64,000 nt of DNA from an uncultured delta proteobacterium (GCA_963743865.1 CAVURG010000006.1:2368107-2432106); one strand, 5' to 3'; positions 8,775 to 62,756 are shown, numbered from the stretch's first letter. Notes: generated by a model not told the origin, from the letters alone. Made by a program: numbers and translations.

Positions 8775-9932
8775 GTGTCCTTTGCGAAGCAGGCCGTGCC
8801 TTTCGAAAACCTGATCCGGCGTGATGGATTAGCCCGGGTGGGGTGGAAGCTTCCCGATCGGCTGACGCCAATTTTAGCCAGAGCCGGCATGATGACCACA
8901 GACGCTTCGAAGCCAGGCAATGCGCCGCGATATTTGACGCTCAACCCCAAGGCAGGGCATCCGTTCTGGAGCGCAAGGACGACGGTGCTTCCGGGATATA
9001 TAGCGTATTGGCAGAAAACCCGATGGAGAAGTTTCGCGAGCTTGCCGCTTGCGGATATTTATTGGGGTTGGAAGCTGTTTCGGGCGAGCCGACAATTTGA
9101 CGCGGTGTTCACCAGCAACGAACGCGCCAGTTGGGTCTTAGCGCTGTTGCAATTGATGAGGCGGCGGCGAGTGCCACACATACAGATCGATTTCTTTTGG
9201 GAGCTTCCGCGGTCGCGCTGGCGTCGCGGTCTCAAGCTCGCATTGTTCAAGCTCGAGCAGCGAACCGTAACCAAGATAGTGTTGTACTCGTCGGCGCAGA
9301 CCGAACGTTACCGGAAGGCGCTTGGGTTTGCCGCCGACAAATTTGTCGCAATTCCCTATCACACCACAATCCATTCCGTCGGGGATGAGGTCATCGAGCC
9401 GGCCAACGGCGATTACATCTTCGCCGGCGGCAACACGGGCCGTGACTACAATACCCTCATCAAAGCGGCGCGACTGGTTCGAGCAAGGTTCCTGATCGCG
9501 ACCAATGATCGGGCCCAGTTCAGAAAAATGGGCGACCTGCCGTCCAATGTCGACATCGTGACCGCTGAACCAAAAACCTTTTTTCGTCTGATGGCGCGAT
9601 CCGCTATGGTTGTGATGCCGTTGCGAAAGGAGTTACTTCGCTCCTGCGGCCACCAGACCTACTTGAACGCGATGGCATTCGGCAAGGCGGTGGTGGCGGC
9701 CGACAACTGCGGAGCCGACGAGTATATCGAGCAAGGCTCCTCGGGTTTGGTGGTTGCGGCGGGAGACGCCGCGCTGCTTGCAGATTCGCTCAACAGCTTG
9801 ATGAGCGATCCAGCCCGGCGGGAAAGGATGGGAAACGCGGCACGGGCCAGGGCCGAGCAGTTCAGCGCAGAGTTGTTTTTCCGGCGCGTTCTGGATTTGG
9901 TACCGGATAAGAATCGCGGCGGCGCGCCTTGA
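8775..9932 (+). CDS. glycosyltransferase, GT-B fold (GT4-like)
   Basis: The C-terminal half reads FGKAVVAADNCGADEYIEQGSSGLVVAAGDAALLADSLNSLMSDPARRERMGNAARARAEQF, which is the typical Glycos_transf_1 region. The start is uncertain (GTG 8775 or ATG 8889). Confidence 0.7.
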   Translation: MSFAKQAVPFENLIRRDGLARVGWKLPDRLTPILARAGMMTTDASKPGNAPRYLTLNPKAGHPFWSARTTVLPGYIAYWQKTRWRSFASLPLADIYWGWKLFRASRQFDAVFTSNERASWVLALLQLMRRRRVPHIQIDFFWELPRSRWRRGLKLALFKLEQRTVTKIVLYSSAQTERYRKALGFAADKFVAIPYHTTIHSVGDEVIEPANGDYIFAGGNTGRDYNTLIKAARLVRARFLIATNDRAQFRKMGDLPSNVDIVTAEPKTFFRLMARSAMVVMPLRKELLRSCGHQTYLNAMAFGKAVVAADNCGADEYIEQGSSGLVVAAGDAALLADSLNSLMSDPARRERMGNAARARAEQFSAELFFRRVLDLVPDKNRGGAP

Positions 9933-10005
9933 ATAAGTGCCCCCGCCAGCGCCCGGCAAAGCGCCCGATCGCAGTTCGGGAATAGAGAAGCTTCAGCGAC
10001 GCAAG

Positions 10006-10036
10006 GCGGTCGCGCTCCCCGGGGAAGCGCGACCGC
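10006..10036 (-). terminator. hairpin 8 nt after the stop of the 10045..14142 gene
   Basis: gcggtcgcgctcccc/ggggaagcgcgaccgc. The same element recurs at 14682..14712 after the paralogue. There is no clear U-tract. Confidence 0.45.
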
Positions 10037-10044
10037 GGTTTTCG

Positions 10045-13000
10045 CTATTTTCCAGTGCCATGCAAGGCCAGCTTCTGGCTAAAGGTCCCGGCGTTGTCAA
10101 AGATGCTCAGCGTTCCGGAGGCGCTACCGCTTACAGTCGGCGCGAAGATAACGCCGATCGTGCAGTTCCCGTTGGGGGCAATGCTGTTGCCACTGCAGGT
10201 GTCGACTCCCTTGGTGTACTCGGCGCTGCCTGTAACGGTCGCATCAGCGGTGAACTGGATCGTGCCATCAGTATTCGGGTTGTGTACCATCACCGACATG
10301 CTTGGCGTATGACCGATCGTCACCGTGCCAAACGAGAGCGACTTGGAGGGCGTAAGCGTTGGCTTCAAGAGCGTGCCCGTACCCTTCAGTGCGATCGTAA
10401 GAGGGCTGTTTTTGGCGTTGCTCGTGACGGCCAGGCCTCCCGTGCGCGAGCCCTGCGCAGTCGGATCGAAGATCACGCCAACGCCGCAACTCCAAGCTGT
10501 TGTTTCGTTGCAGGTTCCTCCTCCCGTGCAGCTCTTAGTGTCCGTTGGCCCGGTGCAGCCAACGCCCGGGTTGGAGCCGCCGGTGCACACATACTTGGGC
10601 TGCAGAATCGTCGCGCCGCTGAGGTTGCAAGGATTCGCGATGCCGGCGCTTGTTGCGGTAAAGTCGCCCGACGCTATGATGCTGTCAACGGTCAGCCCAA
10701 CCCCGTTGGGATTGACCAGCGTCGCGGTTTTGACTGTAGGGTTGGTAACTCCCACCTGGGTGCGGGGAAACACGATGGTGGGTGAGACCTTGAGCATTCC
10801 CAATTTGCCAGGAGGACCCGAAAGGATGAGTGTGTAGGGGCCGAAGGAAGCGTTGGTATTAAAGGTCAGCGTGCCCCTGGCTGCTGCTTCCGTTGTCGTA
10901 GCCTTGAAAGTGACGCCGATCCCGCACTTCTGGTTGGGAGCTAGCGTTGACCCGCAGGTGGTGAGCGACGGATCGGGAGATCCTACGACCGCAAAATTCG
11001 CCGATGGCGAGGCCACGATGCTGTCGATGATAAGTGTGCCGGGGTTTCCAACCGGTGGCGGGCTTACCCCGCCTAGACCGTTATTAGTTATCGAGACGCC
11101 CCAGGGGAACGTGACGGTCGATCCGGTATTCAGCAGGGTCGAGTAACCGAACTTGATCCCCCCGTATGGATAGATCACGGGCGGCGGTACTGGCGTCGCG
11201 GTTGCGGTCGCCGTCGCAGTGGCAGTTGCGGTTGGCGTTGCCGTTGCGGTGGCCGTCGCAGTCGCGGTGGCGGTCGCCGTGGCTGTCGCCGTCGCGGATA
11301 TGGTCGGCGTCAGGCTCGGCGTCGCGGATATGGTCGGCGTCAGGCTCGGCGTCGCGGATATGGTCGGCGTTGCGGTTGCAGTCGCGGTCGCCGTCGCGCT
11401 CAAGGTAGCCGTTGCAGTTGCCGTCTTCGTCGCAGTCGGCGTAGGTGTCGCCACTATATAATTACAGGTGATGACGATGAGGCCGCCTGCGCCAGCACCG
11501 CCCCCGAAGCCAGCGCCACCGCCACCGGCGCCGTAAGTGCCGCCGGCTCCACCAGTGATGCCGGCAGAGCCCCCGCTACCGCCGCCCCCACTGCCATACG
11601 CAGGCGAGGCTTGCCATTCTGTACCGTCTCCGCCATCGATCCCAAAGAAGGGAGCGACGCCAGAGCCGCCGGCGCCACCAAAGCCATTGTCACCTGAGCC
11701 ACCAGGACCAGCGCTCGTTCCTGTCCCGCCCGCTCCAGCATCGCCAGCCCCGTTGGGCCCCGCCGCTCCGCCGCCGCCCGCAGAACCGGTGGTGGGAGTG
11801 GTAGTGCCACCTGTGCCGCCTGCGTACTTGGTGCCGGCAGCGGTCTGCCAGCTTGCGCCACCGGCGCCGCCCGTCTGACCCGACCCCGTTGATCCGCCAG
11901 CGGCGCCGCACGAGGAACCAGCTAAACTCGTGCCGTTGAAATAAGTGCCTCCGCCGTTGTTGGCCGCGCTGCCCCCAGCTCCGATTGCGTAGGTAATGTT
12001 ATTGCCAGTAGTCAGCGAGAGATTGCTGACCTCGCTGTAGGCGCCCCCGCCGCCGCCGCCGGATGAAAAACCGGTAGCACCGCCAGCACCGCCGCCGATG
12101 CATTCGATGGTGTTATTGGAGCCGTTACAGACGCTCGGAACGGTCCAGCTGGTGCCAGAGGTAAGGAAGACGACCGTTGACGTCGGTGTCGGCGTCGCTG
12201 TTACGGTAGCCGTCGCAGTTGGCGTCGCAGTTAAGGTTGCTGTCGCCGTTGCGGTTGCCGTCTTCGTCGGCGTCGCAGTCAAGGTCGCGGTCGGCGTCGC
12301 CGTCCGAGTTGCTGTCACGGTCGCAGTTGCCGTCTTCGTCGGCGTCGGCGTGGCGCATGCATTCACGACCAGGCTCTGTATGATGCTCGTGGTATAGTTA
12401 CCGTTGTTCCCCAGTCCGGCCACGTAAAAGCTATACTTATTCGCCGGGGTGGTTCCGCACGTGGTGGTGATCGTCAGCGTCGTATTATGGCCGGTGCCGC
12501 AACCGGTGGTCGGATTTATAGAGAACGCATCACCCGCACCAGCCGGTATGGTCCATGGAGTCGGTGTCGGTGGGGGAGCGGAATTCGAAAACCCCCCGTT
12601 ATTGGAAAGGCTGTAATTAACGCTACTGACGGTCTGTCCGCTCTGCGTACAATTGACCGTATAGCTTGCGGGGCTTCCAGCGGTAACCGTGCCGGATACC
12701 ACCGTTACCGTGACGCTAGCGATATGGTCAGTGAACTTATCCTGCGCCGTCAGGCCCGAGCTTCCCCCCGTCGCCGTCATCAGGAACGTCACGCCGCCGT
12801 CGGTGTCTTCGATATAGTAATTGTAGTCGGTGAATGAGCCGGTAGAATCTGCAGTGTCGGTCAGAAACGTATCGTCGCCATCGGACTCCTGAATCTGGGT
12901 CGTGACCGTCTCGCCGGGTGCGAATCCGGTTCCATAAATGATGACCGGCGAGCCCGGCGGGTAGTCGGGCTGGTCGGTGCGGATGGTCTGATAGGTGAAC

Positions 13001-14142
13001 GTCTCGGCCAGCGCGAGCGGAGTGCCCGTGCTGTCCAGTCCGCCGCTCATCAGCACCTGCCCGACCGCGGGCACGGCAAAGAAATTGGCCGCGAATTCAT
13101 CGCGCGCGACGCTCATCGGCTCGTTGGCAACGAAGTCGCCGATAATTGGATCGTAAAGTTCGTTCTCTGCTACCGGCTGTCCCGCGCTGGTGCCGCCCGC
13201 GATCAACACCTTGCCGTTGTAGGGCAGGGTCAGACCGAGGTGGCCGCTGCGCGCCGTGATCATCTGCGCGGTGAGCGTCGTGAAAGCACCGGTCGTGGGA
13301 TCGAACTCCTCGGCCGAATTCAGGTCGTTGCCGTTGGCATCCCGGCCGCCTTCGATCAGCACGTCGCCATTGAAATCGAGCAGCATCGATGCGCTGGCCA
13401 GCGTGCGCGCCGTGTTGAGGCTTCCGGTCTCGGTGACGGTGCCCTTGACAGGATTGTAAATCTCGGCGCTGGCGAGCGGCCCGGTAGAATCCGAGCCGCC
13501 GGCGATCAATACGGTGCCGTCGGTAAGCAGCGTGGCGGTATGATCCTGCCGCGCGTTCGCCAAACTGGCTGCCGCGACCGAAAATGTTTGCGAGGTCGGA
13601 TTGTAGATCTCAAGGCTCGCCAGCGGCCCCGATGCGCCGGTCCCGCCTGCGATCAGGACGGTGCCGTTGTTGAGCAGCGTGGCGGTGTGATGGCTGCGCG
13701 CGTGATTCATCGCAGGCAGGGCGACGAATGCGCCCAGCGATGGATTGTACAGTTCCGCCGCGGCAACCGGTGCTCCTGAACTGCCACTGCCACCCACAAG
13801 CAGGACGGTGTTGTCGTTAAGCACAGTCGCAGTCAGACCGGAGACGGCGGCATTAAGGCCGGCCGGCAAGACGGTGAACGTGTTGCCCGACAGGCTGTAA
13901 ACTTCAGCGCTCGTGAGCGCGCCGGAACTGCCGGTGCCGCCGACGATCAGCGCCCCGCCGTTGGGAAGCGTCGCGGCGGCGTGATTGGCGCGCGCGGTGT
14001 TGAGACTCCCCGCAGTCGTCCATACGCCGGGCGCCTGCGCCGAGATTGGAAGCGCAAGCACGAGGATGACGAGCAGGGCCTTCAGGACGATAGCGCCAAC
14101 GCGCCCCGCAGTTCGCCGTGGAGTTTGATTAATCGATTGCAT
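10045..14142 (-). CDS. giant secreted modular protein: signal peptide, 7-blade Kelch propeller, Ig-like region, TA/TP linker, glycine-rich module, TA/TP linker, several choice-of-anchor-D-like domains
   Basis: I take the start as ATG 14142 (MQSINQ...LALPISAQA), preceded by GGGAAGGGG. It has seven repeats of the ARxxHTATLLxDGTVLIAGG type. The C-terminal repeats follow the pattern L.F..v.vG......tv.N.G...l.i.s......F.....C...l.p...C.i.v.F.P...G...g.L. Confidence 0.85.
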   Translation of the reverse strand: MQSINQTPRRTAGRVGAIVLKALLVILVLALPISAQAPGVWTTAGSLNTARANHAAATLPNGGALIVGGTGSSGALTSAEVYSLSGNTFTVLPAGLNAAVSGLTATVLNDNTVLLVGGSGSSGAPVAAAELYNPSLGAFVALPAMNHARSHHTATLLNNGTVLIAGGTGASGPLASLEIYNPTSQTFSVAAASLANARQDHTATLLTDGTVLIAGGSDSTGPLASAEIYNPVKGTVTETGSLNTARTLASASMLLDFNGDVLIEGGRDANGNDLNSAEEFDPTTGAFTTLTAQMITARSGHLGLTLPYNGKVLIAGGTSAGQPVAENELYDPIIGDFVANEPMSVARDEFAANFFAVPAVGQVLMSGGLDSTGTPLALAETFTYQTIRTDQPDYPPGSPVIIYGTGFAPGETVTTQIQESDGDDTFLTDTADSTGSFTDYNYYIEDTDGGVTFLMTATGGSSGLTAQDKFTDHIASVTVTVVSGTVTAGSPASYTVNCTQSGQTVSSVNYSLSNNGGFSNSAPPPTPTPWTIPAGAGDAFSINPTTGCGTGHNTTLTITTTCGTTPANKYSFYVAGLGNNGNYTTSIIQSLVVNACATPTPTKTATATVTATRTATPTATLTATPTKTATATATATLTATPTATATVTATPTPTSTVVFLTSGTSWTVPSVCNGSNNTIECIGGGAGGATGFSSGGGGGGAYSEVSNLSLTTGNNITYAIGAGGSAANNGGGTYFNGTSLAGSSCGAAGGSTGSGQTGGAGGASWQTAAGTKYAGGTGGTTTPTTGSAGGGGAAGPNGAGDAGAGGTGTSAGPGGSGDNGFGGAGGSGVAPFFGIDGGDGTEWQASPAYGSGGGGSGGSAGITGGAGGTYGAGGGGAGFGGGAGAGGLIVITCNYIVATPTPTATKTATATATLSATATATATATPTISATPSLTPTISATPSLTPTISATATATATATATATATATATPTATATATATATATPVPPPVIYPYGGIKFGYSTLLNTGSTVTFPWGVSITNNGLGGVSPPPVGNPGTLIIDSIVASPSANFAVVGSPDPSLTTCGSTLAPNQKCGIGVTFKATTTEAAARGTLTFNTNASFGPYTLILSGPPGKLGMLKVSPTIVFPRTQVGVTNPTVKTATLVNPNGVGLTVDSIIASGDFTATSAGIANPCNLSGATILQPKYVCTGGSNPGVGCTGPTDTKSCTGGGTCNETTAWSCGVGVIFDPTAQGSRTGGLAVTSNAKNSPLTIALKGTGTLLKPTLTPSKSLSFGTVTIGHTPSMSVMVHNPNTDGTIQFTADATVTGSAEYTKGVDTCSGNSIAPNGNCTIGVIFAPTVSGSASGTLSIFDNAGTFSQKLALHGTGK
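11186..11450 (-). repeat. coding Thr/Ala/Pro linker (ACN-GCN periodicity) including 30-bp perfect tandem repeats at 11291..11370
   Basis: It encodes ATPTPTATKTATATATLSATATATATATPTISATPSLTPTISATPSLTPTISATATATATAT.... The unit gtcgcggatatggtcggcgtcaggctcggc occurs 2.7 times. Confidence 0.9.
12178..12352 (-). repeat. coding Thr/Ala/Pro linker
   Basis: It encodes TPTPTKTATATVTATRTATPTATLTATPTKTATATATATLTATPTATATVTATPTPTST. Confidence 0.9.
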
Positions 14143-14265
14143 ATTTTCCCCTTCCCGTTTCGGTTCGATTCCAGAAGGGCGGACTGGCACAAGGCCGGCC
14201 CAGCCTTGCGGTGTCCCCTCGCCCCCACGCCCGATGTATCATCAAGCTTCGGCAATTAGCGCCGG

Positions 14266-14294
14266 ATTATCACAAAATATCCGCTATGAGTCAA
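14266..14294 (-). promoter_or_regulatory. sigma70-like promoter with extended -10 (TTGACT-17 nt-TGtGATAAT) for the 10045..14142 gene
   Basis: The reverse complement of 14266..14294 reads ttgactcatagcggatattttgtgataat. The element is conserved at 17596..17624. Confidence 0.55.
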
Positions 14295-14542
14295 TAAAAC
14301 ATCAAGTAAGCTATGAAAGGATGTTAAAATGACAAGAAGTATCGAATATTTACTAATGGTTGTCTAAACATACGGTTAGCTGAAATTCACAAAATGTTGC
14401 ATCATTTGAATACAGCTGAGTCGTTTAGATACAGCTAGGCGGAAAATCCGACTATAAGGCAAACTTCTTTAAGCAGGCATTGGGGGGCGCTCGTCGCCCG
14501 TATCGATCAGCGATCTCGGACGGCCCGCGCGTTCAGGAACCG

Positions 14543-14625
14543 CTAATTGTTTCCTTTGCCGCTCAAATCAACCACCTGCGGATTATTGGTGGCGTTGTCG
14601 TTGAGCGGCACGTCGCCGGTAACCG
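14543..14625 (-). pseudogene. 3'-terminal relic of a choice-of-anchor-D gene (copy of the 3' end of the 17811..20432 gene)
   Basis: It translates to ...DVPLNDNATNNPQVVDLSGKGNN*, against ...NLPLEDNATNNPQVVDLSGKGNS* at 17811. The flanking non-coding DNA (about 14440-14542 against 17690-17810) is also homologous. Confidence 0.7.
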
Positions 14626-14681
14626 ACGCGCTGTCGATTCCCGTATGGCAGTTCGCGAATAGAGAAATTTCAGCGATGGAA

Positions 14682-14712
14682 GCGGTCGCGCTCCCTTGGG
14701 AAGCGCGATCGC
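14682..14712 (-). terminator. hairpin 8 nt after the stop of the 14721..17474 gene (paralogue of 10006..10036)
   Basis: gcggtcgcgctccc/gggaagcgcgatcgc. Confidence 0.45.
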
Positions 14713-14720
14713 GGTTTCCG

Positions 14721-17474
14721 CTAGTCTCCAGTGCCATACAAAAGGATCGTCTGAGTGGCGGTCGGGGGAGTACCTGTCCCCGCGTTGTCAACAATGCTCA
14801 GCGTTCCGTTGTCCGAGCCGGTTATGGTCGGCTTGAAGATGACGCTGATTATGCAGTAGTCGCCCGCGGGAATGCTGCCGGTGCAGGTGTTGCTTTGCAC
14901 GCTGTAGTCGCTGCTGGCAGTCACGGCGGTGAAATCGATCGGAATAAGGTTCGTGTTGACTGCCGTGACAGACATCGCTGCGCTGGGCACACCGACCTTC
15001 TGCTTGCCGAACGCCAGTGACGTCGCCGAAAGCACCGGCGCGGAGAGCGTGCCGGTGCCTTGCAGCTTGATCCTCGCAGGGCTGTTGCTGGCGTCGCTAA
15101 TGATGGTCAGGTTTCCCGTGCGCTGGCCTTGCGCGCTCGGAGTAAAGCTCACCGTAACCTTGCAGTTGCCTGCCGGAGGGATTCCGCCAACCAGGGTGCT
15201 GCATCCATCGCTGGCGACTAAGAAGTCGCCCGACGCAAACACGTTGCTCACGCCAAGCGCAACCGTGTTGGGATTGGACAGCGTCGCGGTCTTAACCATC
15301 GGGCTGGTGTAGCCCACCGGCGCGTTGAGAAACACGAGAGTGGGCGAAAGGTCGATCAATCCGGCCACGCCAGCGCCTTGAAGCGCTATTGAATGCGGGC
15401 TGTCGGAAGCATTGGAAGTGAATGTCAGTACACCAGAGAATTTTTCTGGCGCAGTAGCGGTGAAATCGACGCCGACCGTGCACTCCGCGTTGGGAGCAAG
15501 GGTCGCCCCGCAGGTGGTGGTCGGCTTATCGATCGCGAATTGCGAGGGGCTGGCCGTGATGCTGGTGAAGTTGATTGCTTTGGCGCCCGTCGCGTTATTG
15601 TTGACCGTGATGGTCCTTGGCCCCTTGGTCGTGGCGCTATTCAGGCCGACGACCGAGTTTTGGAACACTATCCCCGTATATGGAGTGATCTGCGGCGGCG
15701 GTACGGCCGGCGTCGCGCACGCATTTACGACCAAGGTTCCGGTGGTGGTCAAGCTAGTGCCGCTGGCATCGCCTCCACCGGTTGCCGTGACCGTGAAACC
15801 TGTAGGCCCTGTCGGCGTGGTGCCGCACACCGTGTTTATGATCAGCGTCGAAGTCTGGTGGCCAGTACTGGTGCTGGTGAGAGTCGAAGGGACGAAATTC
15901 GTAGTCCACCCCGCCGGCAGCGGTGAGGGGCTCGAAATCGCGAGACTCGCGGTGGCGCTCCCAGTACCTGTGAAGTAGGCAGTAACCGTGTAGACAGCGG
16001 TGCCACCGTCGGTAATCGTGTCTGACGACGGCGATAGCGTGATGCTCGTGACCGCGACGCTATCCGTGAACCGATCCTGCGCGGTCAGGCCCGAGCTCTG
16101 CCCCGTAGCCGTCATCACGAACGTCACGCCGCCGTCGGTATCGCTAATAGTGAAACTGGAGTCGGTGAACGATCCGGTCGAATCCGCAGTGTCAATCCTT
16201 TCGTCGTTTTCGCCGTTGGACCCCTCAATAACGGTGGTGACCGTCTCGCCGGGTGCGAATCCGGCGCCGTATATAATGACCGGCGAGCCCGGCGCATAGT
16301 CGGGCTTGTCGGTGCGGATGGTCTGATAGGTAAACGTTTCGGTCAGGGAGAGCGGGTTGCCGTAGCTGTCCAGTCCGCCGCTCATCAGCACCTGCCCGAC
16401 CGCGGGCGGAGCAAAGAAGTTGGTCGCGAACTCATCGCGCGCAATGCTCATCGGTTCGTTGGCAACGAAGTCGCCGACGACCGGATCGTAAAGTTCGTTC
16501 TCTGCTAGCGGCGCGCCTGCGCTGGTGCCGCCCGCGATCAACACCTTGCCGTTGTAAGGCAGGGTCAGACCGAGGTGGCCGCTGCGCGCGGTAATCATCT
16601 GCGCGGTGAGCGTCGTGAAAGCACCGGTCGCGGGATCAAACTCTTCGGCCGTATTCAGGTCGTTGCCGCTGGCATCCTGACCGCCTTCGATCAGCACGTC
16701 GCCATTGAGATCGAGCAGCATCGATGCGCTGGCCAGCGTGCGCGCCTGGTTGAGGCTTCCGACCTCGGTGACCTTCTTGGTGGCGGGGTTGTAAATCTCG
16801 GCGCTGGCAAGAGGACCGGAAGAATCCGAGCCGCCGGCGATCAGGACGGTGCCGTCGGTAAGCAGCGTGGCGGTATGATCCTGCCGTGCGTGCTGCAAAC
16901 GCCCGGCGGCTGAAAATGTTCTCGAGGCCGGGTTGTAGATCTCAAGGCTGGCGCGTTGCCCCGATGCGCGGCTTCCGCCGGCGATCAGGACGGTGCCGTC
17001 GGTGAGCAGCGTGGCGGTGTGATGGCTGCGCGCTTTTTTCATCGCACGCAGCTTGATGAATGCGCTCTGCGATGGATCGTAGAGTTCCGCCGCGGCAACC
17101 GATTTGCCTGAACTCTTGAGTCCGCCCGCAAACAGGACGGTGTTGTCTTTAAGGACGGTTGCGGTCAGATCGGAGACGGCGGTATTAGTGCTCGTCGGCA
17201 GCGTTGTGAACGTGTTGGCCGACAGGCTGTAAATTTCAGCGCTCGTGAGCGCGCCGGAGCTGCCGGTGCCGCCGACGACTAGCGCCTCGCCGTTGGGAAG
17301 CGTCGCGGCGGCCTGATTGGCGCGCCCAGTGTTGAGGTTGGCGGAAAGCGTCCATGCGCCGGGCGCCTGCGCCGAGATAGGAAGCGCAAGCACGAGGACG
17401 ACGAGCAGAGCCTCCAGGACAATAGCGCCAATGCGACCCGCAGATCTGCGGGGACCTTGATCCGCCGATTTCAT
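14721..17474 (-). CDS. secreted modular protein: signal peptide, 7-blade Kelch propeller, Ig-like region, choice-of-anchor-D-like domains (no linker or Gly-rich module)
   Basis: I take the start as ATG 17474 (MKSADQG...LALPISAQA), preceded by AAGGGAGGGG. The 5' 1.4 kb or so is very similar at DNA level to 12700-14142. Confidence 0.85.
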   Translation of the reverse strand: MKSADQGPRRSAGRIGAIVLEALLVVLVLALPISAQAPGAWTLSANLNTGRANQAAATLPNGEALVVGGTGSSGALTSAEIYSLSANTFTTLPTSTNTAVSDLTATVLKDNTVLFAGGLKSSGKSVAAAELYDPSQSAFIKLRAMKKARSHHTATLLTDGTVLIAGGSRASGQRASLEIYNPASRTFSAAGRLQHARQDHTATLLTDGTVLIAGGSDSSGPLASAEIYNPATKKVTEVGSLNQARTLASASMLLDLNGDVLIEGGQDASGNDLNTAEEFDPATGAFTTLTAQMITARSGHLGLTLPYNGKVLIAGGTSAGAPLAENELYDPVVGDFVANEPMSIARDEFATNFFAPPAVGQVLMSGGLDSYGNPLSLTETFTYQTIRTDKPDYAPGSPVIIYGAGFAPGETVTTVIEGSNGENDERIDTADSTGSFTDSSFTISDTDGGVTFVMTATGQSSGLTAQDRFTDSVAVTSITLSPSSDTITDGGTAVYTVTAYFTGTGSATASLAISSPSPLPAGWTTNFVPSTLTSTSTGHQTSTLIINTVCGTTPTGPTGFTVTATGGGDASGTSLTTTGTLVVNACATPAVPPPQITPYTGIVFQNSVVGLNSATTKGPRTITVNNNATGAKAINFTSITASPSQFAIDKPTTTCGATLAPNAECTVGVDFTATAPEKFSGVLTFTSNASDSPHSIALQGAGVAGLIDLSPTLVFLNAPVGYTSPMVKTATLSNPNTVALGVSNVFASGDFLVASDGCSTLVGGIPPAGNCKVTVSFTPSAQGQRTGNLTIISDASNSPARIKLQGTGTLSAPVLSATSLAFGKQKVGVPSAAMSVTAVNTNLIPIDFTAVTASSDYSVQSNTCTGSIPAGDYCIISVIFKPTITGSDNGTLSIVDNAGTGTPPTATQTILLYGTGD

Positions 17475-17595
17475 ATTTTCCCCTCCCTTTCCGCTCGATC
17501 CCACAAGGGCAGGCTCGCGCACAGATCGAACAGCCTTGCGGGGTCCCTTCGCGCCCGTGCCCGAACTACCATCGGGCTTTGGCAATTCGGGCGCG

Positions 17596-32552: not shown

Positions 32553-32590
32553 TCTTGTCGAATTAGCGAGAGTGAGCTACCAGAGGCGCC

Positions 32591-33391: not shown

Positions 33392-33400
33392 ACCGATGCA

Positions 33401-53936: not shown

Positions 53937-54722
53937 TCAGCCGAGGGCGGCAAGCGCAAGCCCCGACGCCACCATCACCGCGCCGGAGGCGCGGGCAACG
54001 GCGCCGCCCCAAGGCGCGGCCTTTTCGAGCAGGACAAAGATCGTCAGCGCGACCGCCCAAGCCAGGTTCATAACACCGGCTACGAACATGAGCGCCATCA
54101 GCATCCAGCAGCATCCGACGCAGAACACGCCGTGGTTCAGGCCCATTGCGAGCGCGCCGCGCGCGCCGGAGCGCCACTGGGTCATGAAAAAGCCCAGCGG
54201 CGAACGGCACTGGGTCAGGCACGCTTGCTTGAGCGGAGTGAACTGGTAGATGCCGGCGGCAATCAGGAGCAGGCCGCCGGCCAACGGTTGCATACGCATT
54301 GCGCCGGCGATGATCCGGGAACGTTCCAGCGCGTACTGCACCACGGTGATGGCAGCGCTGAATCCGGTCCATGCGATCAGATATCCGAGCGCAAAAAAAC
54401 AGGCGCGGCCGGCGCGTTCGGCGCTTTGGCCACGGGCGATTCGCGCATACATCTCGATCATTGGGCTTGCGCTCGGGATCATCATCGCCGCCATCATCAC
54501 CGTCCACATTGCGAAGATGAGCCACGCATCGCGAAGCGACCACACGGCGGCTCCGGCATCGATGGTCGAAGTCATGCCGCCCATCGCGCCGGGGTTCATG
54601 CGCAAGGCCGGCATCGGCATCCGGGCAAGCACCAGCCACGAGATAGCGGTAACCGCCAAGATCCCGGCCCATACGATCAAGCGCTCGCGCGAAGGAAGTT
54701 GCGCCGGCGAGTCAGCCTTCAT
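53937..54722 (-). CDS. DUF2182-type predicted metal-binding membrane protein
   Basis: MMIPSASPMIEMY...CRSPLGFF...GLNHGVFCVGCCWMLMALMFVAGVMN. I take the start as ATG 54722. Confidence 0.6.
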   Translation of the reverse strand: MKADSPAQLPSRERLIVWAGILAVTAISWLVLARMPMPALRMNPGAMGGMTSTIDAGAAVWSLRDAWLIFAMWTVMMAAMMIPSASPMIEMYARIARGQSAERAGRACFFALGYLIAWTGFSAAITVVQYALERSRIIAGAMRMQPLAGGLLLIAAGIYQFTPLKQACLTQCRSPLGFFMTQWRSGARGALAMGLNHGVFCVGCCWMLMALMFVAGVMNLAWAVALTIFVLLEKAAPWGGAVARASGAVMVASGLALAALG

Positions 54723-55314
54723 ACGTGAACGGAGAAAACTGCCCGGTTCTGCCGGTGAGATCGAGAGTGAAGCCGTAGTCGCGAAACTTGAGCTGCTTGG
54801 AGCGCGCGACGATGCTTGGATGGCCGGGTGCGATACCGAGCGGGTGGTTGCTGATGATAACGTCGGCGCCGCCGGCGCCATCGAGCGCTTCGATCTCCGA
54901 TTCGCCGACGTCGCGGATCGTCATGCGGCGGGTCCGGCCGGTTGCCTGGTAGGAGATTTCGGCGCGCTTTACCCCGAGCACCTTGGTAATGAGCGCACGG
55001 ATGGCCGCGGGCGCTCCGCCTGCCTGTCCGGAAAAGATCGCGGCGAGAGCGTCGCTCTGCGGGGCCGAGGCGCGCGAATCGAGGTACAAGGCGGCGCTCC
55101 AGTTACCGTGGTGCATCGATCCGGGCGAATGGAACAGCGCGGCGACATTGAATCCATCCAAAGCGGCGCCGGCGAATTTGCCGGATTCGACGTGCCATCC
55201 TACGAGCACGGTGCAATTGCCCTCGGTGGGGGGACTGAGAAAGATGCATGGGCATAGAGTCTGGCAGTTACAGGTCTCGAAATAATCGCCCTTTACATTC
55301 CACTTCGGCGCCAT
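54712..55314 (-). CDS. DUF1326-type protein
   Basis: MAPKWNVKGDYFETCNCQTLCPCIF is the characteristic Cys-rich N-terminus. It is paired with DUF2182, as is commonly seen. Confidence 0.6.
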   Translation of the reverse strand: MAPKWNVKGDYFETCNCQTLCPCIFLSPPTEGNCTVLVGWHVESGKFAGAALDGFNVAALFHSPGSMHHGNWSAALYLDSRASAPQSDALAAIFSGQAGGAPAAIRALITKVLGVKRAEISYQATGRTRRMTIRDVGESEIEALDGAGGADVIISNHPLGIAPGHPSIVARSKQLKFRDYGFTLDLTGRTGQFSPFTYEG

Positions 55315-55817: not shown

Positions 55818-57368
55818 TCAGGGCGCGCCGGCGGATTGTGCTCCAGTGGAGCTTTGCGCGCCGCTACGCGGCGGGAACCCCAGTCCCGAAAGTTCATTGT
55901 ACTTCTGGAACTCCCGCTCGAAATCGGCAATTCGCCCCTTCCTCATATAATCCTGCGCGAGCCTGAGGTGCAAATACGCCTCCCACGCGCGCCGGGATTT
56001 CGAACCAACAGGTTCGGCCGCCACGTACTGTTCGAAGAAAGTCGCGTCGTCGTGCCAGTAATGCTCGATTCGAATCGCCGTCACCATATATGCGGCGAGA
56101 ATCAATGCCATCGCCGTGCCGACTGCGGCGCGCGCACGCGGACCTACAGCCGCAATCCGTACGACAGCAAGCGCCAGCGCCAGGGACCATCCGAATGACG
56201 GCGCATAGAGGTAGCGGTCCTGGACCAGCGCCCAAATTGAATTCAGCTTCAGCGCGGGCGCCAGCGCCAGGCCACTCCACGCGGCGCAGAAAAGATAGAT
56301 GCGCCGATCAGGCCTGCGCAGCACCAGCACCAGGGCCAAGGCCGCGAGGATCACAAGGATGCCCGCCGAAACGAAAACGATGGGCGCCGAGAGCGTAACC
56401 CAATGCACGCTGTGCAGCGGACCCGCGACGCCGGGCACCGCCAGCACCTCAAGATAGGTCAGCAGCACGACCGGCATGGTCGCCAGGTAGTCAACCGCCG
56501 AGTGATAATGAGTACTGGTCAGCGCCAGGCCGGCAATCGCACGCGGAGCGGTCCAATGGAACGCGGTTCTCAATCCCAGCACCTCGATCCGCGCGCACAA
56601 ATACGCGACCGCGAGCACAAAGAACGGCGCCGAGAGGCCGGCCGCAGCTAAAGCGCGCGTTAGGATCGTCCCGGCGTTGCGGCTCGGCTCGGGCGATTGC
56701 CTGTCCGGTCCGCGTTCGATCAGAAAAACATACGCGGCGACGATCAAGGGAAACAGGATCGCCGTCTCGTGCGTCAGCAGCGCGCACGCGTACAGGGCCA
56801 GCGCAGCAAGCATCGCGCGCGACCAGCCCGGCTTGCGCTTGATGAAGCAGCACATCGCGCCGAGCTCGAAAACCGTGGACAGCGGCTCGGGAATCGCGCT
56901 GGCCCACACCACTGCTTCGACGTGCGCCGGCATGAGACCGAAGATCGCCGCGGTCAAGAGCGCAACCGCGACGCTGCGGCTGAGCAGTTGCGCGATGCGG
57001 AAGGAGAGCATCACCGCGACCAGGTGCAGCACAATCTTTTCGAGATGCCATGCGACCGGGTGGTCTCCCAGCATCATATAGTTCAGCGCAAGCCATGTGT
57101 TCTGGAGCGGCCGATAGTAGGAGCTTTGCGGCAGTCGCGCGGGCTGGCGAAACCACCAGCTATCATGGATGAACGATAGCCAGATGAACGACCAGTTGTG
57201 GATCAAGTTGTTGCTTACAATTTCGTCCCAATCGTCGAACACCCAGCCGTTGCGCAGGCTCGGGAGGTAGATCGCGACCGTCGCGAGGATAATTCCAGCG
57301 AGGATCGCGGCCTGCCACGGTTCAAGCTTCCACCAGCGCCGCGCGGGAGTCCGTGCGTCCGGATTCAT
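55818..57368 (-). CDS. GT-C-fold membrane protein of the PMT/TMTC-like (O-mannosyltransferase-like) type with a short TPR-like tail
   Basis: The N-terminus is LPSLRNGWVFDDWDEIVSN...YYRPLQNTWLALNYMM, followed by about 10 TM helices and a soluble C-terminus. Confidence 0.55.
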   Translation of the reverse strand: MNPDARTPARRWWKLEPWQAAILAGIILATVAIYLPSLRNGWVFDDWDEIVSNNLIHNWSFIWLSFIHDSWWFRQPARLPQSSYYRPLQNTWLALNYMMLGDHPVAWHLEKIVLHLVAVMLSFRIAQLLSRSVAVALLTAAIFGLMPAHVEAVVWASAIPEPLSTVFELGAMCCFIKRKPGWSRAMLAALALYACALLTHETAILFPLIVAAYVFLIERGPDRQSPEPSRNAGTILTRALAAAGLSAPFFVLAVAYLCARIEVLGLRTAFHWTAPRAIAGLALTSTHYHSAVDYLATMPVVLLTYLEVLAVPGVAGPLHSVHWVTLSAPIVFVSAGILVILAALALVLVLRRPDRRIYLFCAAWSGLALAPALKLNSIWALVQDRYLYAPSFGWSLALALAVVRIAAVGPRARAAVGTAMALILAAYMVTAIRIEHYWHDDATFFEQYVAAEPVGSKSRRAWEAYLHLRLAQDYMRKGRIADFEREFQKYNELSGLGFPPRSGAQSSTGAQSAGAP

Positions 57369-57840: not shown

Positions 57841-59349
57841 CTATTGGCAGATTACCGGAAGAACCATGCCCAAGCTGGTTTGGTCCAAAGGCGGGGAGAT
57901 CACGTGATCGTTCCCAGCGATCAGCAGCGTCCCAGTCTCCTTCCCGGCACAGGTTCCGGTCCCCAGGCCCGTGCAACACGCGTATGGCTTTGCAGTCTTG
58001 GTGCATGCCGCGTTGCCAAGCGGAGTGCACATAGCCCCTGAGTCTGTAAGCGTGATCGTGCAGGTGTTGGTGCCCAGCGGGAAAGCAACGCCGATTAACG
58101 GGTTATTCGCCGGGATAGCGCCGCCGGTGGTAAGGCAGGTGCCGCCGGTAATCGTTACATCGGGCACGGTACCACTCAGACTGATACCCGTGTAGTCGAT
58201 CGGCTCCACGGAACCGTTGGTGACGGTAAGGGTCACGGACGGATTTGGATTCAAGTTCGTTGTAGTCAATACGCCCGACGTGGGAAGTATTTTACCGATT
58301 CCCGTAGCAATAGCTTTGCTTGCGCTGCCGGTTGAAGGGCCACCGGACGCAATACCACCACTGCCGGTCGTCAAGATAAACGCGCTCTGGTTCACGGTGC
58401 CCCAGACAACCGAGGCATTCTCGAAGCCGTTGCCGCCGAGAGGGCAACCGAAGTCGCCATTGAGGGCAGCGTCGGTCACTTGCGTACCGTCCGTGACGCT
58501 CGGACCCGCGCCGATGATCGTCTCATGGAAGTCGCAAACCAAGGCGCCGCCTCCCGGAGGAATAATTTGGAAGCCGTTGGCGAAGGTGGAATCATAGCCG
58601 TTGTCAACGTTAAAGAAGATGCTGCCGCCGCCTTCGACGACCGTGCCGGTCTCCGGATCGTAGTGTTCAGCCACTTCTGTCTGGACTGCGTCGAAGCCCA
58701 CACCGAGCGCGCCGCCCACGACTCCGCCGCTGCCAGCGTCGAAACTGACGCCAGTAGTAGTGAGGAAAGTATTGACGCCATTGGTACCAAGAGCAGTCAC
58801 ATTCTGCTTCTCGCCGAGAATGACGAGAGGATCGCCCGGATCGATGCGAGCGCCGCGGAACTCCAACCCGCCTGCTTCCGCCGTCACTCCGAAGGTAAAG
58901 CTCAGGCCGCTTGGGGCATCAATAAGCGTGATAGTGCCGGAGTGGTTGGTGTTGAAATAATAGGCGCCGTAATCGCCGGCCGGATATCCGACCATCGTGC
59001 CGCTGAAAGCTGGGACAAACGGCGCGCCGGCGACGTTGATCGTGGTCGGGCTGGACCAGCCGGCCACGGTGTCATTTTTGTTGAAGATAAGTTCGCCCGC
59101 AGTTATGTCGCAGAGGCCATCGACCTGAATCACGCCGATTCCCGCCTCGGGTATTGGCTCCGGATCGCCGTTGGTGATGCTGGTTTCGGTTACCGCTCCG
59201 GCGATCTTAATCGCGTAATTGCCGGCGAGAAGCCCGCCGTTCGTTGTCCCAGGGGGACAAATTCCAGCCGCCAAGGCCGCCGATGCACTTCCGAGCAGCG
59301 CCAGTCCAAAGGCGCCTGCCAGTGCTAATGTAAGAAAGTTACGTTTCAT
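57841..59349 (-). CDS. secreted Gly/Thr-rich hypothetical protein with a Cys-rich C-terminal region
   Basis: The signal peptide is MKRNFLTLALAGAFGLALLGSASAALA. I recognise no catalytic motif. The C-terminus has a TLTVTNGS...ITLTD beta-sandwich-like segment and a CC/CxxxC cluster. Confidence 0.7.
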   Translation of the reverse strand: MKRNFLTLALAGAFGLALLGSASAALAAGICPPGTTNGGLLAGNYAIKIAGAVTETSITNGDPEPIPEAGIGVIQVDGLCDITAGELIFNKNDTVAGWSSPTTINVAGAPFVPAFSGTMVGYPAGDYGAYYFNTNHSGTITLIDAPSGLSFTFGVTAEAGGLEFRGARIDPGDPLVILGEKQNVTALGTNGVNTFLTTTGVSFDAGSGGVVGGALGVGFDAVQTEVAEHYDPETGTVVEGGGSIFFNVDNGYDSTFANGFQIIPPGGGALVCDFHETIIGAGPSVTDGTQVTDAALNGDFGCPLGGNGFENASVVWGTVNQSAFILTTGSGGIASGGPSTGSASKAIATGIGKILPTSGVLTTTNLNPNPSVTLTVTNGSVEPIDYTGISLSGTVPDVTITGGTCLTTGGAIPANNPLIGVAFPLGTNTCTITLTDSGAMCTPLGNAACTKTAKPYACCTGLGTGTCAGKETGTLLIAGNDHVISPPLDQTSLGMVLPVICQ

Positions 59350-59867: not shown

Positions 59868-62756
59868 ATGCGTTTCAACAAGTCGCTAACGCGGTCGATC
59901 GCGTGCTTAGGCTTTTCGTTTCTGTTTCTGATTGCCGCGTTTGCGCGGCCGGTGTTGGCGCAATCGAATGACGATGCGTCGCCAGACAGCAAGACACCAG
60001 TAAGTAAACTCACTGTCGCGCCCAAGTCGCTGAACTTCAACGTCAATATCGACAAGGGCGTATTCTCCCAGACCAAGCATTTCAACATCAAGAACAATGG
60101 GACGCTGCCGCTGCACGTAACGGTAGGCGCGCCCTCCAACGCCGACTTCGTGATAATGTCCGGCGGCGGTTCCAGCACGATTCCCGGCAAGGTAAAGGGG
60201 AGCAAGGACAACATCCTGGGGGTTCAGGTTAAGTTCACTCCCGAAGGACCCGTCAAGAACGACATCGGAACCATCAGCATCACCAGTGACGCGAGCAACC
60301 CAGCCAAGCAGAACGCGACCGTCAAGCTGAAGGGGAAATCCGAGCAGAAGCATCCGACGCCGACCGTAACGCCAACGGCGACGGCGACGCCAACGGCGAC
60401 TGCGACGCATACAGCAACCGCAACGGCGACGGCCACCGCAACGGCGACGGCCACCGCAACGGCAACGGCGACCGCAACGGCAACGCTGACTGCGACGCCA
60501 AGCGCAACGCTGACTGCGACGCCAAGCGTTACGGCGACGCCAAGCGCAACGCTGACTGCGACGCCAAGCGTTACGGAGACGCCAGGCCCAACGCTGACGG
60601 CGACGCCAAGTGTTACGGCGACGCCAAGCGTTACGGCGACGCCAAGCGTTACGGTGACGCCAACGGTTACGGCGACGGCAACCGTTACGGCGACTGCAAC
60701 GGCCACGGTGACGGCGACCTCGACCGGCGGCGCAACGCCGACGGCAACGCCGACACAGGGGGTGCAGGCGGGTGACCTGCTGATCGCGGGCGGCGACGTC
60801 GGCGGAACGCTGAGCGGGATAGTTCCGCTGTCAACCTCCACGGTCTCCACGCCCTCGGCTGAGATCTACGAGGCGCTAAGCGACGCATTCTCGATCGTGG
60901 GTTCGCTGAACAATTCGCGCGAGGCGAGTGCGGCTGCGGTGGTGCTGCCTAATCAGAAGATCCTGTACGCGGGCGGCTCGCATTGCTACCCGAAGACGTA
61001 CCCGATCCTCGGTCTGTGTAAGTCAAAATACGTGGGCTACCAGTGCGACGCGCTGCAAACCGCCGAACTGTACGACGAGAACACTCAGCAGTTTACGATA
61101 GCCGGCTTGAACAGCGGCGGCTTGATGACGACCGGGCGCAGCGGCGCGACCGCGACCCTGATCGAAAACACCGGCACCGGGCTGGACGGCAAGGTGCTGA
61201 TCACGGGCGGCTCGACCGGCAGTACGTTCCTGGCGCTGGCGACTCCGCCGCCGGGATGCGGACCTGAGGTTAACGGCCAATTCGCACAGGTGGCGCAGAA
61301 CACCGCGGAGATCTACGACCCCGTGGCCGACACCTTCACCGCGACCGGATCGATTCCGGGATGCCCGGCGGGAGAGTCGCCTGTGACGACGCCGGCATGC
61401 ACCACGGGGCTGCCTGCGACATGCGGTGCGGCTCAAAGTCCGATCACGTCTGCAAATGAAAGCGGAACAACTGTAACCGTCACCAGCGCGGCGAATCCGA
61501 CCGGCCTAGTGGTTAATGACCAGGTTTCAGTTAGCGGCGCGAGCATTCCGGGATACAACGGAATCTACACCGTAACCGCGATTCCCAGCGGCACCACGTT
61601 CCAATACACGGCCGCCTCAGGATTGGCCGCCGCGACAGGTGGATTTGCGTCAGCCCTCACGGCGCAGTGCGGGTTGGTCGATTCAGTGGCGCAACTGCTG
61701 GGTACCGGCAAGGTGCTGGTGGCGGGCGGCGACTACATAGTGTTCCTCGGCCAGTCGTCCGCGCAGTCGTTCCTCTTCAACCCGGGTACGGCGACGTTCA
61801 GCCCGACTTCTCACCAGATGAACGTGGCGCGCGAGCTGCCCGGGATAACCATCCTGCCGTCAGGCAATGTGCTGGTGGCAGGAGGGATAACAGGAGAGGC
61901 GGCACCCTGCGCGGCCACGCCGGCTACAGCGGTAGATTTCATTACCAACAGCTCGGCCGAGATTTACAATCCTACGGCTGACACCTGGACGCTGACCAGC
62001 GGCTCATCCTCGACCCCGGGCGCAGCGGGCGGGATGAGCGTGCAACGAATCGCGACTGCGGAGCTGTTCACCAGCGGACCGGATGCCGGCCTGGTGCTAA
62101 TGGCTGGAGGGGTAAACAGCGGGACGCCGAGTTTCGGGACCTGCTCGGCGACCCCGGCCATATCGCAGACCACCGCAACCGCGAGCGACCTGTTCGATGA
62201 GACGACGGGCGTGTTCACGCCCACCGGCGCGCTGAACCAGTCTCGCGGCGGTTATGCATACGGCATGATCAGCGCGGGGGCGAACGCCGGCGAGCTGGTG
62301 GTGGTAGGCGGACAATGCGCGTTCGGAGGCTTGGGCTCGTACGCGATTGGCAGCCCGATCGCGGGTATACGCTGCGGCGCGTCTGCACAGACCGACTACT
62401 ACGAGCTGTTCGATCCGACCAGCGGGACGTGGTCGGTGGGAGGAAACAACCCATCCTGGTTCTCGGGAGCTTCGATTTCGAGTGCAAGCGAAAGCGGAAC
62501 CACTGTAACAATCACCATGACGACGGCGAATCCGGTTGGCCTGATCGTTGGAGGCAGCGTTATAATTAGCGGCGTGAGCGTTGTCGGATACAACAATACC
62601 TTTAACACGACCGGGACTTCGTACCTCGTAACCTCGATCCCCACGAGCAAGACGTTCACATTCACGTCCACCAACACGGGAATGGGCGCCGGGACAGGCG
62701 GGACAGCGGCAGCCGCAACCGCGGTCAATTCTCCGGCCTACGCGGTGCTGCCATAG
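59868..62756 (+). CDS. giant secreted modular protein: signal peptide, N-terminal choice-of-anchor-D-like domain, long TA/TP/TS linker, Kelch-like propeller with two inserted 65-aa beta-barrel repeats
   Basis: The start is ATG 59868 (MRFNKSL...ARPVLAQ), after GGGGAGGA. LNFNVNIDKGVFSQTKHFNIKNNGTLPLHVTV...VQVKFTPEG is the anchor-D-like domain. Kelch-like GG blades follow. The two repeats are I[TS]SA[NS]ESGTTVT...GYN...F.[YF]T. Confidence 0.85.
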   Translation: MRFNKSLTRSIACLGFSFLFLIAAFARPVLAQSNDDASPDSKTPVSKLTVAPKSLNFNVNIDKGVFSQTKHFNIKNNGTLPLHVTVGAPSNADFVIMSGGGSSTIPGKVKGSKDNILGVQVKFTPEGPVKNDIGTISITSDASNPAKQNATVKLKGKSEQKHPTPTVTPTATATPTATATHTATATATATATATATATATATATATLTATPSATLTATPSVTATPSATLTATPSVTETPGPTLTATPSVTATPSVTATPSVTVTPTVTATATVTATATATVTATSTGGATPTATPTQGVQAGDLLIAGGDVGGTLSGIVPLSTSTVSTPSAEIYEALSDAFSIVGSLNNSREASAAAVVLPNQKILYAGGSHCYPKTYPILGLCKSKYVGYQCDALQTAELYDENTQQFTIAGLNSGGLMTTGRSGATATLIENTGTGLDGKVLITGGSTGSTFLALATPPPGCGPEVNGQFAQVAQNTAEIYDPVADTFTATGSIPGCPAGESPVTTPACTTGLPATCGAAQSPITSANESGTTVTVTSAANPTGLVVNDQVSVSGASIPGYNGIYTVTAIPSGTTFQYTAASGLAAATGGFASALTAQCGLVDSVAQLLGTGKVLVAGGDYIVFLGQSSAQSFLFNPGTATFSPTSHQMNVARELPGITILPSGNVLVAGGITGEAAPCAATPATAVDFITNSSAEIYNPTADTWTLTSGSSSTPGAAGGMSVQRIATAELFTSGPDAGLVLMAGGVNSGTPSFGTCSATPAISQTTATASDLFDETTGVFTPTGALNQSRGGYAYGMISAGANAGELVVVGGQCAFGGLGSYAIGSPIAGIRCGASAQTDYYELFDPTSGTWSVGGNNPSWFSGASISSASESGTTVTITMTTANPVGLIVGGSVIISGVSVVGYNNTFNTTGTSYLVTSIPTSKTFTFTSTNTGMGAGTGGTAAAATAVNSPAYAVLP
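60354..60755 (+). repeat. coding Thr/Ala/Pro/Ser linker built from degenerate 18- and 24-bp units
   Basis: The units are gcaacgctgactgcgacgccaagc (ATLTATPS) and gttacggcgacgccaagc (VTATPS), reiterated with point changes. Confidence 0.9.

Follow-up and report, generated by a model that had tools for sequence, protein, structure and literature searches.

An earlier note, made from the sequence alone, described a surface island with interleaved polysaccharide genes and large secreted proteins in a 64,000 nt stretch of DNA from an uncultured delta proteobacterium (GCA_963743865.1 CAVURG010000006.1:2368107-2432106). The whole of this stretch is called the window here. The open reading frames (ORFs) of the window were listed and translated, and 43 candidate genes were scanned against NCBIfam and Pfam. 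The locus runs from 8775 to 62756 (~54 kb), and almost all of its genes are either polysaccharide-related or encode proteins with a signal peptide. Our coverage of the source genome was the window plus ~3 kb on its right, and the complete genome is 3.57 Mb. Relatives of the FemAB-like protein of the locus were found at 50-93% identity, with Candidatus Binatus or Binataceae as the sole organism names among them, and the named matches of a second protein family in the locus (the C/F family, described below) are likewise all Binatus or Binataceae. Going by these protein relatives, we place the source genome in the uncultured class Binatia / Binataceae.

All components of a Wzx/Wzy-dependent pathway are present in the locus. 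The priming polyprenyl glycosylphosphotransferase (26964-28400, minus strand) scores above the TIGR03025 cut-off (370 bits vs 296), and the top match of the Wzx protein (23307-24719, minus strand) is the MOP flippase model at 123 bits, with at least six transmembrane segments predicted and PF01943 found in the orthologues. The Wzy-type polymerase, which is also O-antigen-ligase-like (36884-38155, minus strand; eight transmembrane segments), passes the Pfam threshold for Wzy_C with 73 bits. A Wzz-like polysaccharide co-polymerase (PCP) is fused to a tyrosine kinase of the bacterial type (BY-kinase) with a C-terminal Tyr cluster (41421-43787, minus strand) and scores above the TIGR01007 cut-off (125 vs 108). 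Export would use a short, Wza-like outer-membrane polysaccharide export protein (OPX) of 222 aa (44974-45642, minus strand), which matches the EpsY model at 88 bits and whose orthologues carry Poly_export and SLBB domains. The adjoining gene encodes a signal-peptide outer-membrane protein (43736-44977, minus strand) that is the presumed beta-barrel partner of the OPX. TIGR03016 is its sole family match and was found in 6/6 orthologues (best E 1.8e-11), and a single-sequence structure model reached a predicted local distance difference test (pLDDT) score of 29. The claim of a full Wzx/Wzy pathway with a Wza, an outer-membrane barrel and a Wzc-like fusion is therefore borne out for the pathway, the short OPX and the PCP/BY-kinase fusion, while the barrel is presumed, its TIGR03016 match being weak.

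The earlier note also regarded the accessory genes as hallmarks of PEP-CTERM/EpsH loci and proposed a profile search with the corresponding models, here the XrtA TIGRFAM suite (TIGR03006-03027, 03087/88, 03097 and 03109). Scores are given as bits/curated cut-off. Suite models were the top match for eight window genes, often over the full length, and in all eight cases the score was below the curated cut-off. These are the stp1-like family 4 glycosyltransferase (GT4) at 35712-36887 on the minus strand (TIGR03087, full length, 203/317), the stp2-like GT4 at 51481-52683 on the minus strand, which is the first gene of the conserved core operon (TIGR03088, 188/409), and the FemAB-like acyl/aminoacyl transferase at 49250-50308 on the minus strand (TIGR03019, full length, 221/260), along with the Wzy/O-ligase protein (TIGR03097, 92/188), the tyrosine kinase (TIGR03018, 132/231), the chain-length determinant (TIGR03007, 104/279), the export protein (TIGR03027, 121/180) and the outer-membrane protein (TIGR03016, 21/91). 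In the same search the choice-of-anchor-D model passed in three of the secreted proteins, A, B and C. NCBI names the Binatia FemAB homologues generic GNAT acetyltransferases; after the Binatia orthologues, the next-nearest relatives of the FemAB-like protein are XrtA-associated FemAB proteins at 32-43% identity.

A 39%-identical FemAB homologue gave us a locus for direct comparison on contig_9584 of a high-GC long-read metagenome-assembled genome (MAG), called L018 here. We verified L018 as a bona fide XrtA-type exosortase locus, as its FemAB (270 vs 260), TIGR03006 deacetylase (349 vs 276), PEP-CTERM-box response regulator (615 vs 503), chain-length determinant (314 vs 279) and frameshifted TIGR02602 exosortase (123 vs 106) all score above their cut-offs. 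The exosortase gene and the next outer-membrane protein gene of L018 are each split by a frameshift (13462-15708), probably an assembly error, and the exosortase is annotated as a 119-aa fragment because of this split. Ten core genes of the window are 27-47% identical to L018 genes. The L018 counterparts include an unnamed methyltransferase (window gene 48429-49421, minus strand, S-adenosylmethionine (SAM)-dependent type, 47%), an alkaline-phosphatase-superfamily protein of the Phosphodiest family (47302-48432, minus strand, PF01663, 40%), a conserved 417-aa protein (40171-41424, minus strand, 29%) and two family 2 glycosyltransferases (GT2), one of them corresponding to 39251-40204 on the minus strand (39%). 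Since the stp2-like GT4 of L018 (163 bits) and its OPX/export protein also fall below the cut-offs, the sub-threshold suite scores of the window are no argument against relatedness. The 417-aa protein has no family match and orthologues at 62-84%; it sits between the PCP/kinase gene and the GT2 in every Binatia locus, and by these relatives it is an uncharacterised core component common to the Binatia loci and L018. At the level of protein similarity, the comparison shows that the core operon comes from the same stock as XrtA-associated loci, without the sortase arm. The hallmark claim thus survives as homology of ten genes to L018, though not as matches passing the suite models.

Set against XrtA/PEP-CTERM loci in general, the window has the FemAB-like protein, the stp-like GT4s, the Wzy_C/O-ligase-like protein, the PCP and BY-kinase, the short OPX and the TIGR03016-like outer-membrane protein, as well as the accessory methyltransferase, the Phosphodiest protein, the ~400-aa protein and the two GT2s. 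Unlike those loci, it scores below every suite cut-off, its PCP and kinase are fused, and it has no exosortase, PEP-CTERM substrates, TIGR03006 deacetylase, PrsK/PrsR or EpsI-type gene. The absence of an exosortase gene from the window, as claimed earlier, was confirmed: none of the 43 candidate genes matched the TIGR02602/TIGR03109 family, and a phmmer search with the L018 exosortase against six-frame ORFs of at least 80 aa from the window and the relatives' loci returned nothing below E = 1. Five or six further Binatia genomes likewise had no exosortase in their syntenic stretches, and PF09721 does not occur in the annotations of the related loci L003-L007 and L013-L017, while it is present in L018, which served as the positive control. 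A regular expression for PEP-CTERM-like tails found none in any window ORF of at least 60 aa and none in the window and Binatia loci together (~0.24 Mb in total), and it recovered the true PEP-CTERM tail of a Terriglobia locus (L011) used as a positive control. TIGR02595 had no match on proteins A-F, and family scans of the window gave no PrsK/PrsR, no TIGR03006 deacetylase and no EpsI-type gene. In place of PrsK/PrsR the core operon contains a Crp/Fnr-family regulator (45632-46501, minus strand; cNMP_binding and HTH_Crp_2 in orthologues), which occupies the position held by the sortase in L018. Two exosortase candidates were considered and rejected: a 545-aa protein of locus L008 without a Pfam match is pectate-lyase-like, and the nine-transmembrane protein at 55818-57368 has TPR-tailed, PMT_2-like GT-C relatives and no match to the L018 exosortase.

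Large Sec-secreted proteins are the other component of the locus. The earlier note listed at least five, here called A to E, with coordinates that are correct and C-termini that are exact, and overlooked a sixth, F. Protein A (10045-14142, minus strand) consists of a signal peptide, a Kelch propeller, an Ig-like domain, Thr-Ala/Thr-Pro (TA/TP) linkers, a Gly-rich insert and three choice-of-anchor-D (CAD) domains, and ends in ...LHGTGK. Protein B (14721-17477, minus strand, ...LYGTGD) has a signal peptide, Kelch propeller, Ig-like domain and three CAD domains, and protein C (17811-20432, minus strand, ...SGKGNS) has a signal peptide, a carbohydrate-binding-module (CBM)-like domain, a glycoside-hydrolase (GH)-like TIM-barrel module, a TP linker and one CAD domain. 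Protein D (57841-59349, minus strand, ...LPVICQ) is a signal peptide followed by a 470-aa domain with a Cys-rich C-terminus, and protein E (59868-62756, plus strand, ...AYAVLP) has a signal peptide, a CAD-like Ig domain, a TA/TP linker of ~150 aa and a Kelch-like propeller with inserts. Protein F (29387-31417, plus strand) is secreted, GH-like, and a paralogue of C without linker or CAD domain.

The choice_anch_D model (NF012200) matches the extreme C-terminus of A (50.7 bits), B (93 bits) and C (61.2 bits) above its cut-off of 45, and a local CAD hidden Markov model (HMM) found three copies in A and one CAD-like domain at the N-terminus of E (E = 4e-6). Kelch matches are strong in A and B (Kelch_4 at 107 bits in A) and weak in E (Kelch_6, 37.6 bits). 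No CAD copy was detected in D by the local HMM and D has no family match of any kind, so it stands outside the module sharing; the claim that all five proteins shuffle the same modules does not hold for D. The architecture of the CAD proteins matches that of NCBI-named proteins in Binatus, Sulfotelmatobacter and Chloroflexota. In PDB sequence searches the B propeller was closest to generic KLHL Kelch domains, and the 417-aa protein, F, the GT-C protein and the E propeller gave no match. A radical copper oxidase identity for A and B (GlxA/galactose-oxidase type) was considered and rejected, since the weak GlxA score (43 bits, cut-off 800) can be put down to the Kelch repeats alone and the PDB matches are to KLHL proteins.

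Over 660 aa, A and B share 65% identity. Between B and A is a leftover piece of gene C's 3′ end (14529-14618 vs 17797-17886, 89% identity), and matching terminator-like hairpins follow both A and B (10006-10065 vs 14682-14741). Together these show that a tandem duplication, its unit extending from the 3′ end of C through B, gave rise to A. The duplication is a recent one, and A acquired its Gly-rich and TA/TP inserts later. The TA/TP linkers of A, C and E are encoded by long imperfect repeats with periods of 12, 18 and 24 nt (11183-12366, 18100-18290 and 60351-60728), and it is likely that these tracts differ in length among strains and are easily misassembled.

Proteins C and F are 45% identical over 650 aa, with C having the added TP linker and one CAD domain. 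No member of the C/F family has a Pfam assignment, and there is no PDB sequence match for C and F. An AlphaFold (AF2) model of F built from 26 family members (pLDDT 72.8) shows a CBM-like sandwich, an Ig domain, a TIM barrel and a C-terminal sandwich. Foldseek against the PDB returned GH2 glucuronidases/galactosidases, a GH5 mannanase, GH13 enzymes and a GH66 dextranase with E-values of 4e-16 to 1e-12 and a probability of 1.0, yet TM-scores were just 0.29-0.38. In the sequence alignment D433, E434 and E543, putative catalytic residues, are invariant in the family. We read C and F, on the strength of this model, as putative polymer-processing GH-like enzymes, a reading that fits because such hydrolases are common in polysaccharide operons. 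The scaffold role suggested for the large proteins in the earlier note is accordingly not upheld for C.

None of the five proteins, nor F, has a C-terminal sorting signal of the PEP-CTERM, LPXTG or other type, in agreement with what had been claimed. An anchor after a choice-of-anchor-D domain is what the family name implies, and its absence was presented as an anomaly, which it is not. A, B and C end 0-3 residues after the CAD domain, all 15 complete C-type Binatia orthologues end directly after it (12 of them in ...SGKG followed by two to four residues that are mostly basic), and the domain is likewise the end of CAD proteins in Terriglobia and Acidobacteriaceae and of 32 of the 120 nearest homologues from other phyla. 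A few CAD homologues carry Cys-type or transmembrane-plus-basic tails, which makes the family name a fitting one. Given the 15/15 orthologues and 32/120 homologues, an anchor is not required after a CAD domain. The further suggestion of a new anchoring logic does not hold up either: an anchor-less CAD domain is no anomaly, C and F look enzyme-like, and the Vibrio cholerae vps/rbm region provides a precedent. On this evidence the secreted proteins are better seen as ordinary partners, either enzymes or non-covalent matrix components, than as a new anchoring logic.

That precedent consists of the vps-1/rbm/vps-2 clusters, in which genes for Sec-secreted matrix proteins without a sorting signal, including the beta-propeller adhesins RbmC and Bap1, the Ig-like FnIII protein RbmA and the polymer-cleaving RbmB, lie interspersed among the polysaccharide genes (PMC11451748, PMC10102183, PMC5605196, PMC12993940). 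The window resembles it in having interleaved anchor-less propeller, Ig-like and enzyme proteins, with modules shuffled and duplicated among paralogues. It differs in that the propellers here are Kelch-type, the Ig-like domains are of the CAD/ASH type (as in ASH-HYDIN-type Ig proteins), the putative enzyme is a TIM-barrel hydrolase rather than a beta-helix lyase, and the phylum is another one; the likeness is an analogy only, with no sequence homology seen. The export end of the pathway is similar to Class-3 OPX and beta-barrel porin translocons such as EpsY/EpsX of Myxococcus xanthus (PMC9603273, PMC9601211, PMC12819527), in that a 222-aa OPX with EpsY as its second-best model, a neighbouring signal-peptide outer-membrane protein and a Wzx/Wzy pathway occur together. 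Where the M. xanthus translocon has EpsX, the outer-membrane protein here is a relative of TIGR03016 with a presumed barrel fold.

The large proteins are mostly conserved neighbours of the polysaccharide genes in related genomes, going by the kind of synteny check that the earlier note proposed. The Binatia loci L003, L004, L005, L007 and L017 contain the core operon (stp2-like GT4 through Wzy) at 41-88% protein identity. Upstream of it in the relatives are one to three copies of GT-C genes, D-like proteins at 30-45% (L003, L007, L017) and an E-like protein at 49% (L003), so that in L003, L004/L005, L007 and L017 this region repeatedly holds D-like, E-like and GT-C genes. The other half of the locus is found at 63-74% identity in L013/L014 and L015, in the order priming glycosyltransferase, small signal-peptide protein, methyltransferase, GT2, Wzx, C and an A/B orthologue. 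C orthologues (66%) adjoin Wzx in L013 and L015, and a contig search with B returned three loci, with B orthologues at 63-73% in L010, L013 and L015. L014 and L017 are two stretches of a single 122-kb JGI contig (Ga0210383_10000062) that is collinear with the window over a stretch beginning at the D-like gene, taking in the core and ending at Wzx-C-B, with a FemAB-C spacing of ~30 kb in both. The exception is contig_8674 of a MAG, discussed below. In L015, three tandem Flp/Fap pilin genes (16769-17453) lie just downstream of the Kelch-CAD gene.

The GT-C gene of the window (55818-57368, minus strand), which lies beside D, encodes a putative nine-transmembrane, PMT_2/TMTC-like glycosyltransferase with an FDDW motif and without the usual TPR tail. 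Its own sequence had no direct family match in the NCBIfam and Pfam scans, and it is classified by the families of its relatives: among 32,811 representative relatives, a sample of 28 had TPR in 26 and a PMT_2 match in five, with the DD motif conserved. Between the core operon and this gene, at 53937-55314, are a PpoB2 copper-chaperone membrane protein (223 bits) and a DUF1326 protein (179 bits). The pair is missing from the corresponding position in all relatives examined and is an unrelated insertion.

The remaining genes of the locus supply further glycosyltransferases and decoration enzymes, and the locus is unusually well equipped for decoration. A GT2 with TuaG/EpsD-type matches lies at 21226-22221 (plus strand), another with GT2 matches at 34425-35660 (plus strand), and a membrane-associated GT2 with transmembrane segments at 50324-51592 (minus strand). 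At the left edge of the locus is a GT4 (8775-9932, plus strand; Glycos_transf_1 52.7 bits, stp/EpsE models weak), which has no counterpart at the corresponding position in relatives. There are ~8 methyltransferases in all, 3-4 of them FkbM-type. Apart from the one with an L018 homologue, the SAM methyltransferases are at 22300-23049 (minus strand; weak UbiG-type match, 73% orthologue in L013 and L015), 25308-26060 (minus strand; Methyltransf_23/11) and 38335-39327 (minus strand; Methyltransf_25/11), and TIGR01444 identifies FkbM methyltransferases at 32591-33391 (plus strand; 53 bits vs cut-off 38), 46503-47279 (minus strand; 74 bits, missing in L003-L007) and 53037-53882 (plus strand; 91 bits). 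The other decoration genes encode a GNAT acetyltransferase (28716-29309, plus strand; Acetyltransf_1), the FemAB-like transferase, the Phosphodiest-family protein and two sulfotransferases (31532-32473, Sulfotransfer_1 65 bits, and 33581-34522, both on the plus strand). The sulfotransferases are near-identical because of a 2,050-bp tandem duplication with 98% identity (31352-33401 and 33402-~35450), the duplicated unit of which comprises the final 84 nt of the F gene and the whole sulfotransferase gene.

To the left of the locus (1-8700) is a phage-like recombination module (2144-6325) with an ERF single-strand annealing protein, a YqaJ/lambda-type exonuclease, an HNH endonuclease and a 616-aa P-loop ATPase, and the interval from 6325 to 8775 contained no convincing ORF, tRNA or Rfam match. 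Island boundaries were sought by tRNA and Rfam scans and nothing was found. To the right, 63133-63972 and the overlapping contig L002 encode multihaem c-type cytochromes (paired CXXCH, cytochrome c7 types) and an NHL/SGL-repeat protein.

From the family assignments, the priming phosphotransferase and ~7 GT2/GT4 enzymes would assemble a repeat unit, which the methyltransferases, sulfotransferases, GNAT enzyme and FemAB-like transferase would decorate heavily. Wzx would flip the unit, the Wzy_C protein would polymerise it, the PCP/BY-kinase fusion would set the chain length, and the polymer would be exported by the short OPX and the neighbouring outer-membrane protein. The GT-C (PMT_2-like) transferase or transferases beside D and E probably add sugars to the polymer in the periplasm, with glycosylation of the Thr/Pro-rich linkers as a speculative alternative. 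Most likely, F and C would trim or remodel the polymer, and the Kelch/Ig proteins A, B and E, together with D, would bind the glycan or other matrix components non-covalently.

Taking these results together, we consider this to be probably a Binatia-specific Wzx/Wzy polysaccharide locus with an XrtA-related core that lacks the sortase arm, in which co-conserved, anchor-less Sec-exported proteins are embedded. Its machinery is of an ordinary type, found in a lineage about which little is known, and it is not a new protein-anchoring system. Several of our own results count against this interpretation. The outer-membrane protein was assigned just from weak TIGR03016 matches and its position, the F model is of moderate confidence with low Foldseek TM-scores and predicted catalytic residues, and in contig_8674 a distance of ~90 kb separates the A/B orthologue (73%) from the core, and no polysaccharide gene occurs within 10 kb of this orthologue. 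Linkage of the Kelch protein is therefore not obligatory; the core of contig_8674 is still flanked by C/F-like, CAD-like and D-like genes. The unlinked orthologue would also suit an account in which the large secreted proteins are bystanders that accumulated in a variable polysaccharide locus without functional coupling, as would the signs of recent rearrangement (the A/B duplication and C remnant, the 2-kb duplication at 31352/33402, the PpoB2/DUF1326 insertion and the phage-like left edge). We think this very unlikely, since gene order and spacing are kept in genomes with just 63-75% protein identity, F sits in the middle of biosynthetic genes, and upstream of the core the D-like, E-like and GT-C genes turn up repeatedly. 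In actinobacteria, Thr/Pro-rich secreted proteins are O-mannosylated by PMT-family enzymes, and the conservation of GT-C genes beside D and E and the long TA/TP linkers of A, C and E raise the idea that the locus is chiefly for protein O-glycosylation, with the GT-C enzymes putting sugars or repeat units on the Thr/Pro/Ala-rich linkers to give surface glycoproteins. This too is improbable to a high degree: the complete Wzy, PCP/BY-kinase and OPX export route speaks for a high-molecular-weight polymer that is secreted, long linkers are missing from B, D and F, and the GT-C protein has no direct family match.

Absence of an exosortase from the locus could also mean that this is an ordinary XrtA/PEP-CTERM system with its exosortase, regulators and PEP-CTERM substrates elsewhere in the 3.57-Mb genome, of which our view was limited to the window and its right margin. 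The core is homologous to a true exosortase locus, L008 has a FemAB named XrtA-associated by PGAP/NCBI and likewise no exosortase within 10 kb, and some Binatia orthologues are labelled PEP-CTERM-system FemAB by JGI. However, the exosortase gene is reported to lie nearly always among polysaccharide genes (Haft et al. 2006, PMC1569441), yet there is none in the syntenic stretches of six Binatia genomes that jointly span the locus. The lack of PEP-CTERM tails in the Binatia DNA searched is a weak point in the same direction, the sample being small, and the missing XrtA-type deacetylase, PrsK/PrsR and EpsI-type genes, the sub-cut-off suite scores and the generic GNAT names given by NCBI add to it, so that we regard a displaced sortase arm as unlikely. 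A bolder possibility is that Binatia inherited an exosortase-type system and replaced the sortase arm with anchor-less Kelch/Ig and hydrolase/Ig proteins, coupled to the glycan through GT-C-modified linkers or lectin-like binding by CAD and Kelch domains. This is quite doubtful, but if true it would be a sortase-independent way to build a protein-glycan matrix and a natural comparison for exosortase function.

On our preferred interpretation of an XrtA-related polysaccharide locus without a sortase arm, this is a natural case of an exosortase-type biosynthetic core kept in a locus that has no sortase. What the sortase arm does is still poorly understood, and if Binatia genomes lack exosortases and PEP-CTERM proteins, comparison with loci of the L018 type could separate the roles of the sortase arm and the polysaccharide arm; otherwise the locus would be an ordinary polysaccharide cluster, well annotated. 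The C/F hydrolase-like family, being without a Pfam assignment, may be a new glycoside hydrolase family. The literature searched gave nothing on Binatia surface polymers or on Binatia with an exosortase. Binatia are abundant uncultured soil bacteria, and this locus is a defined, conserved candidate for their matrix polysaccharide.

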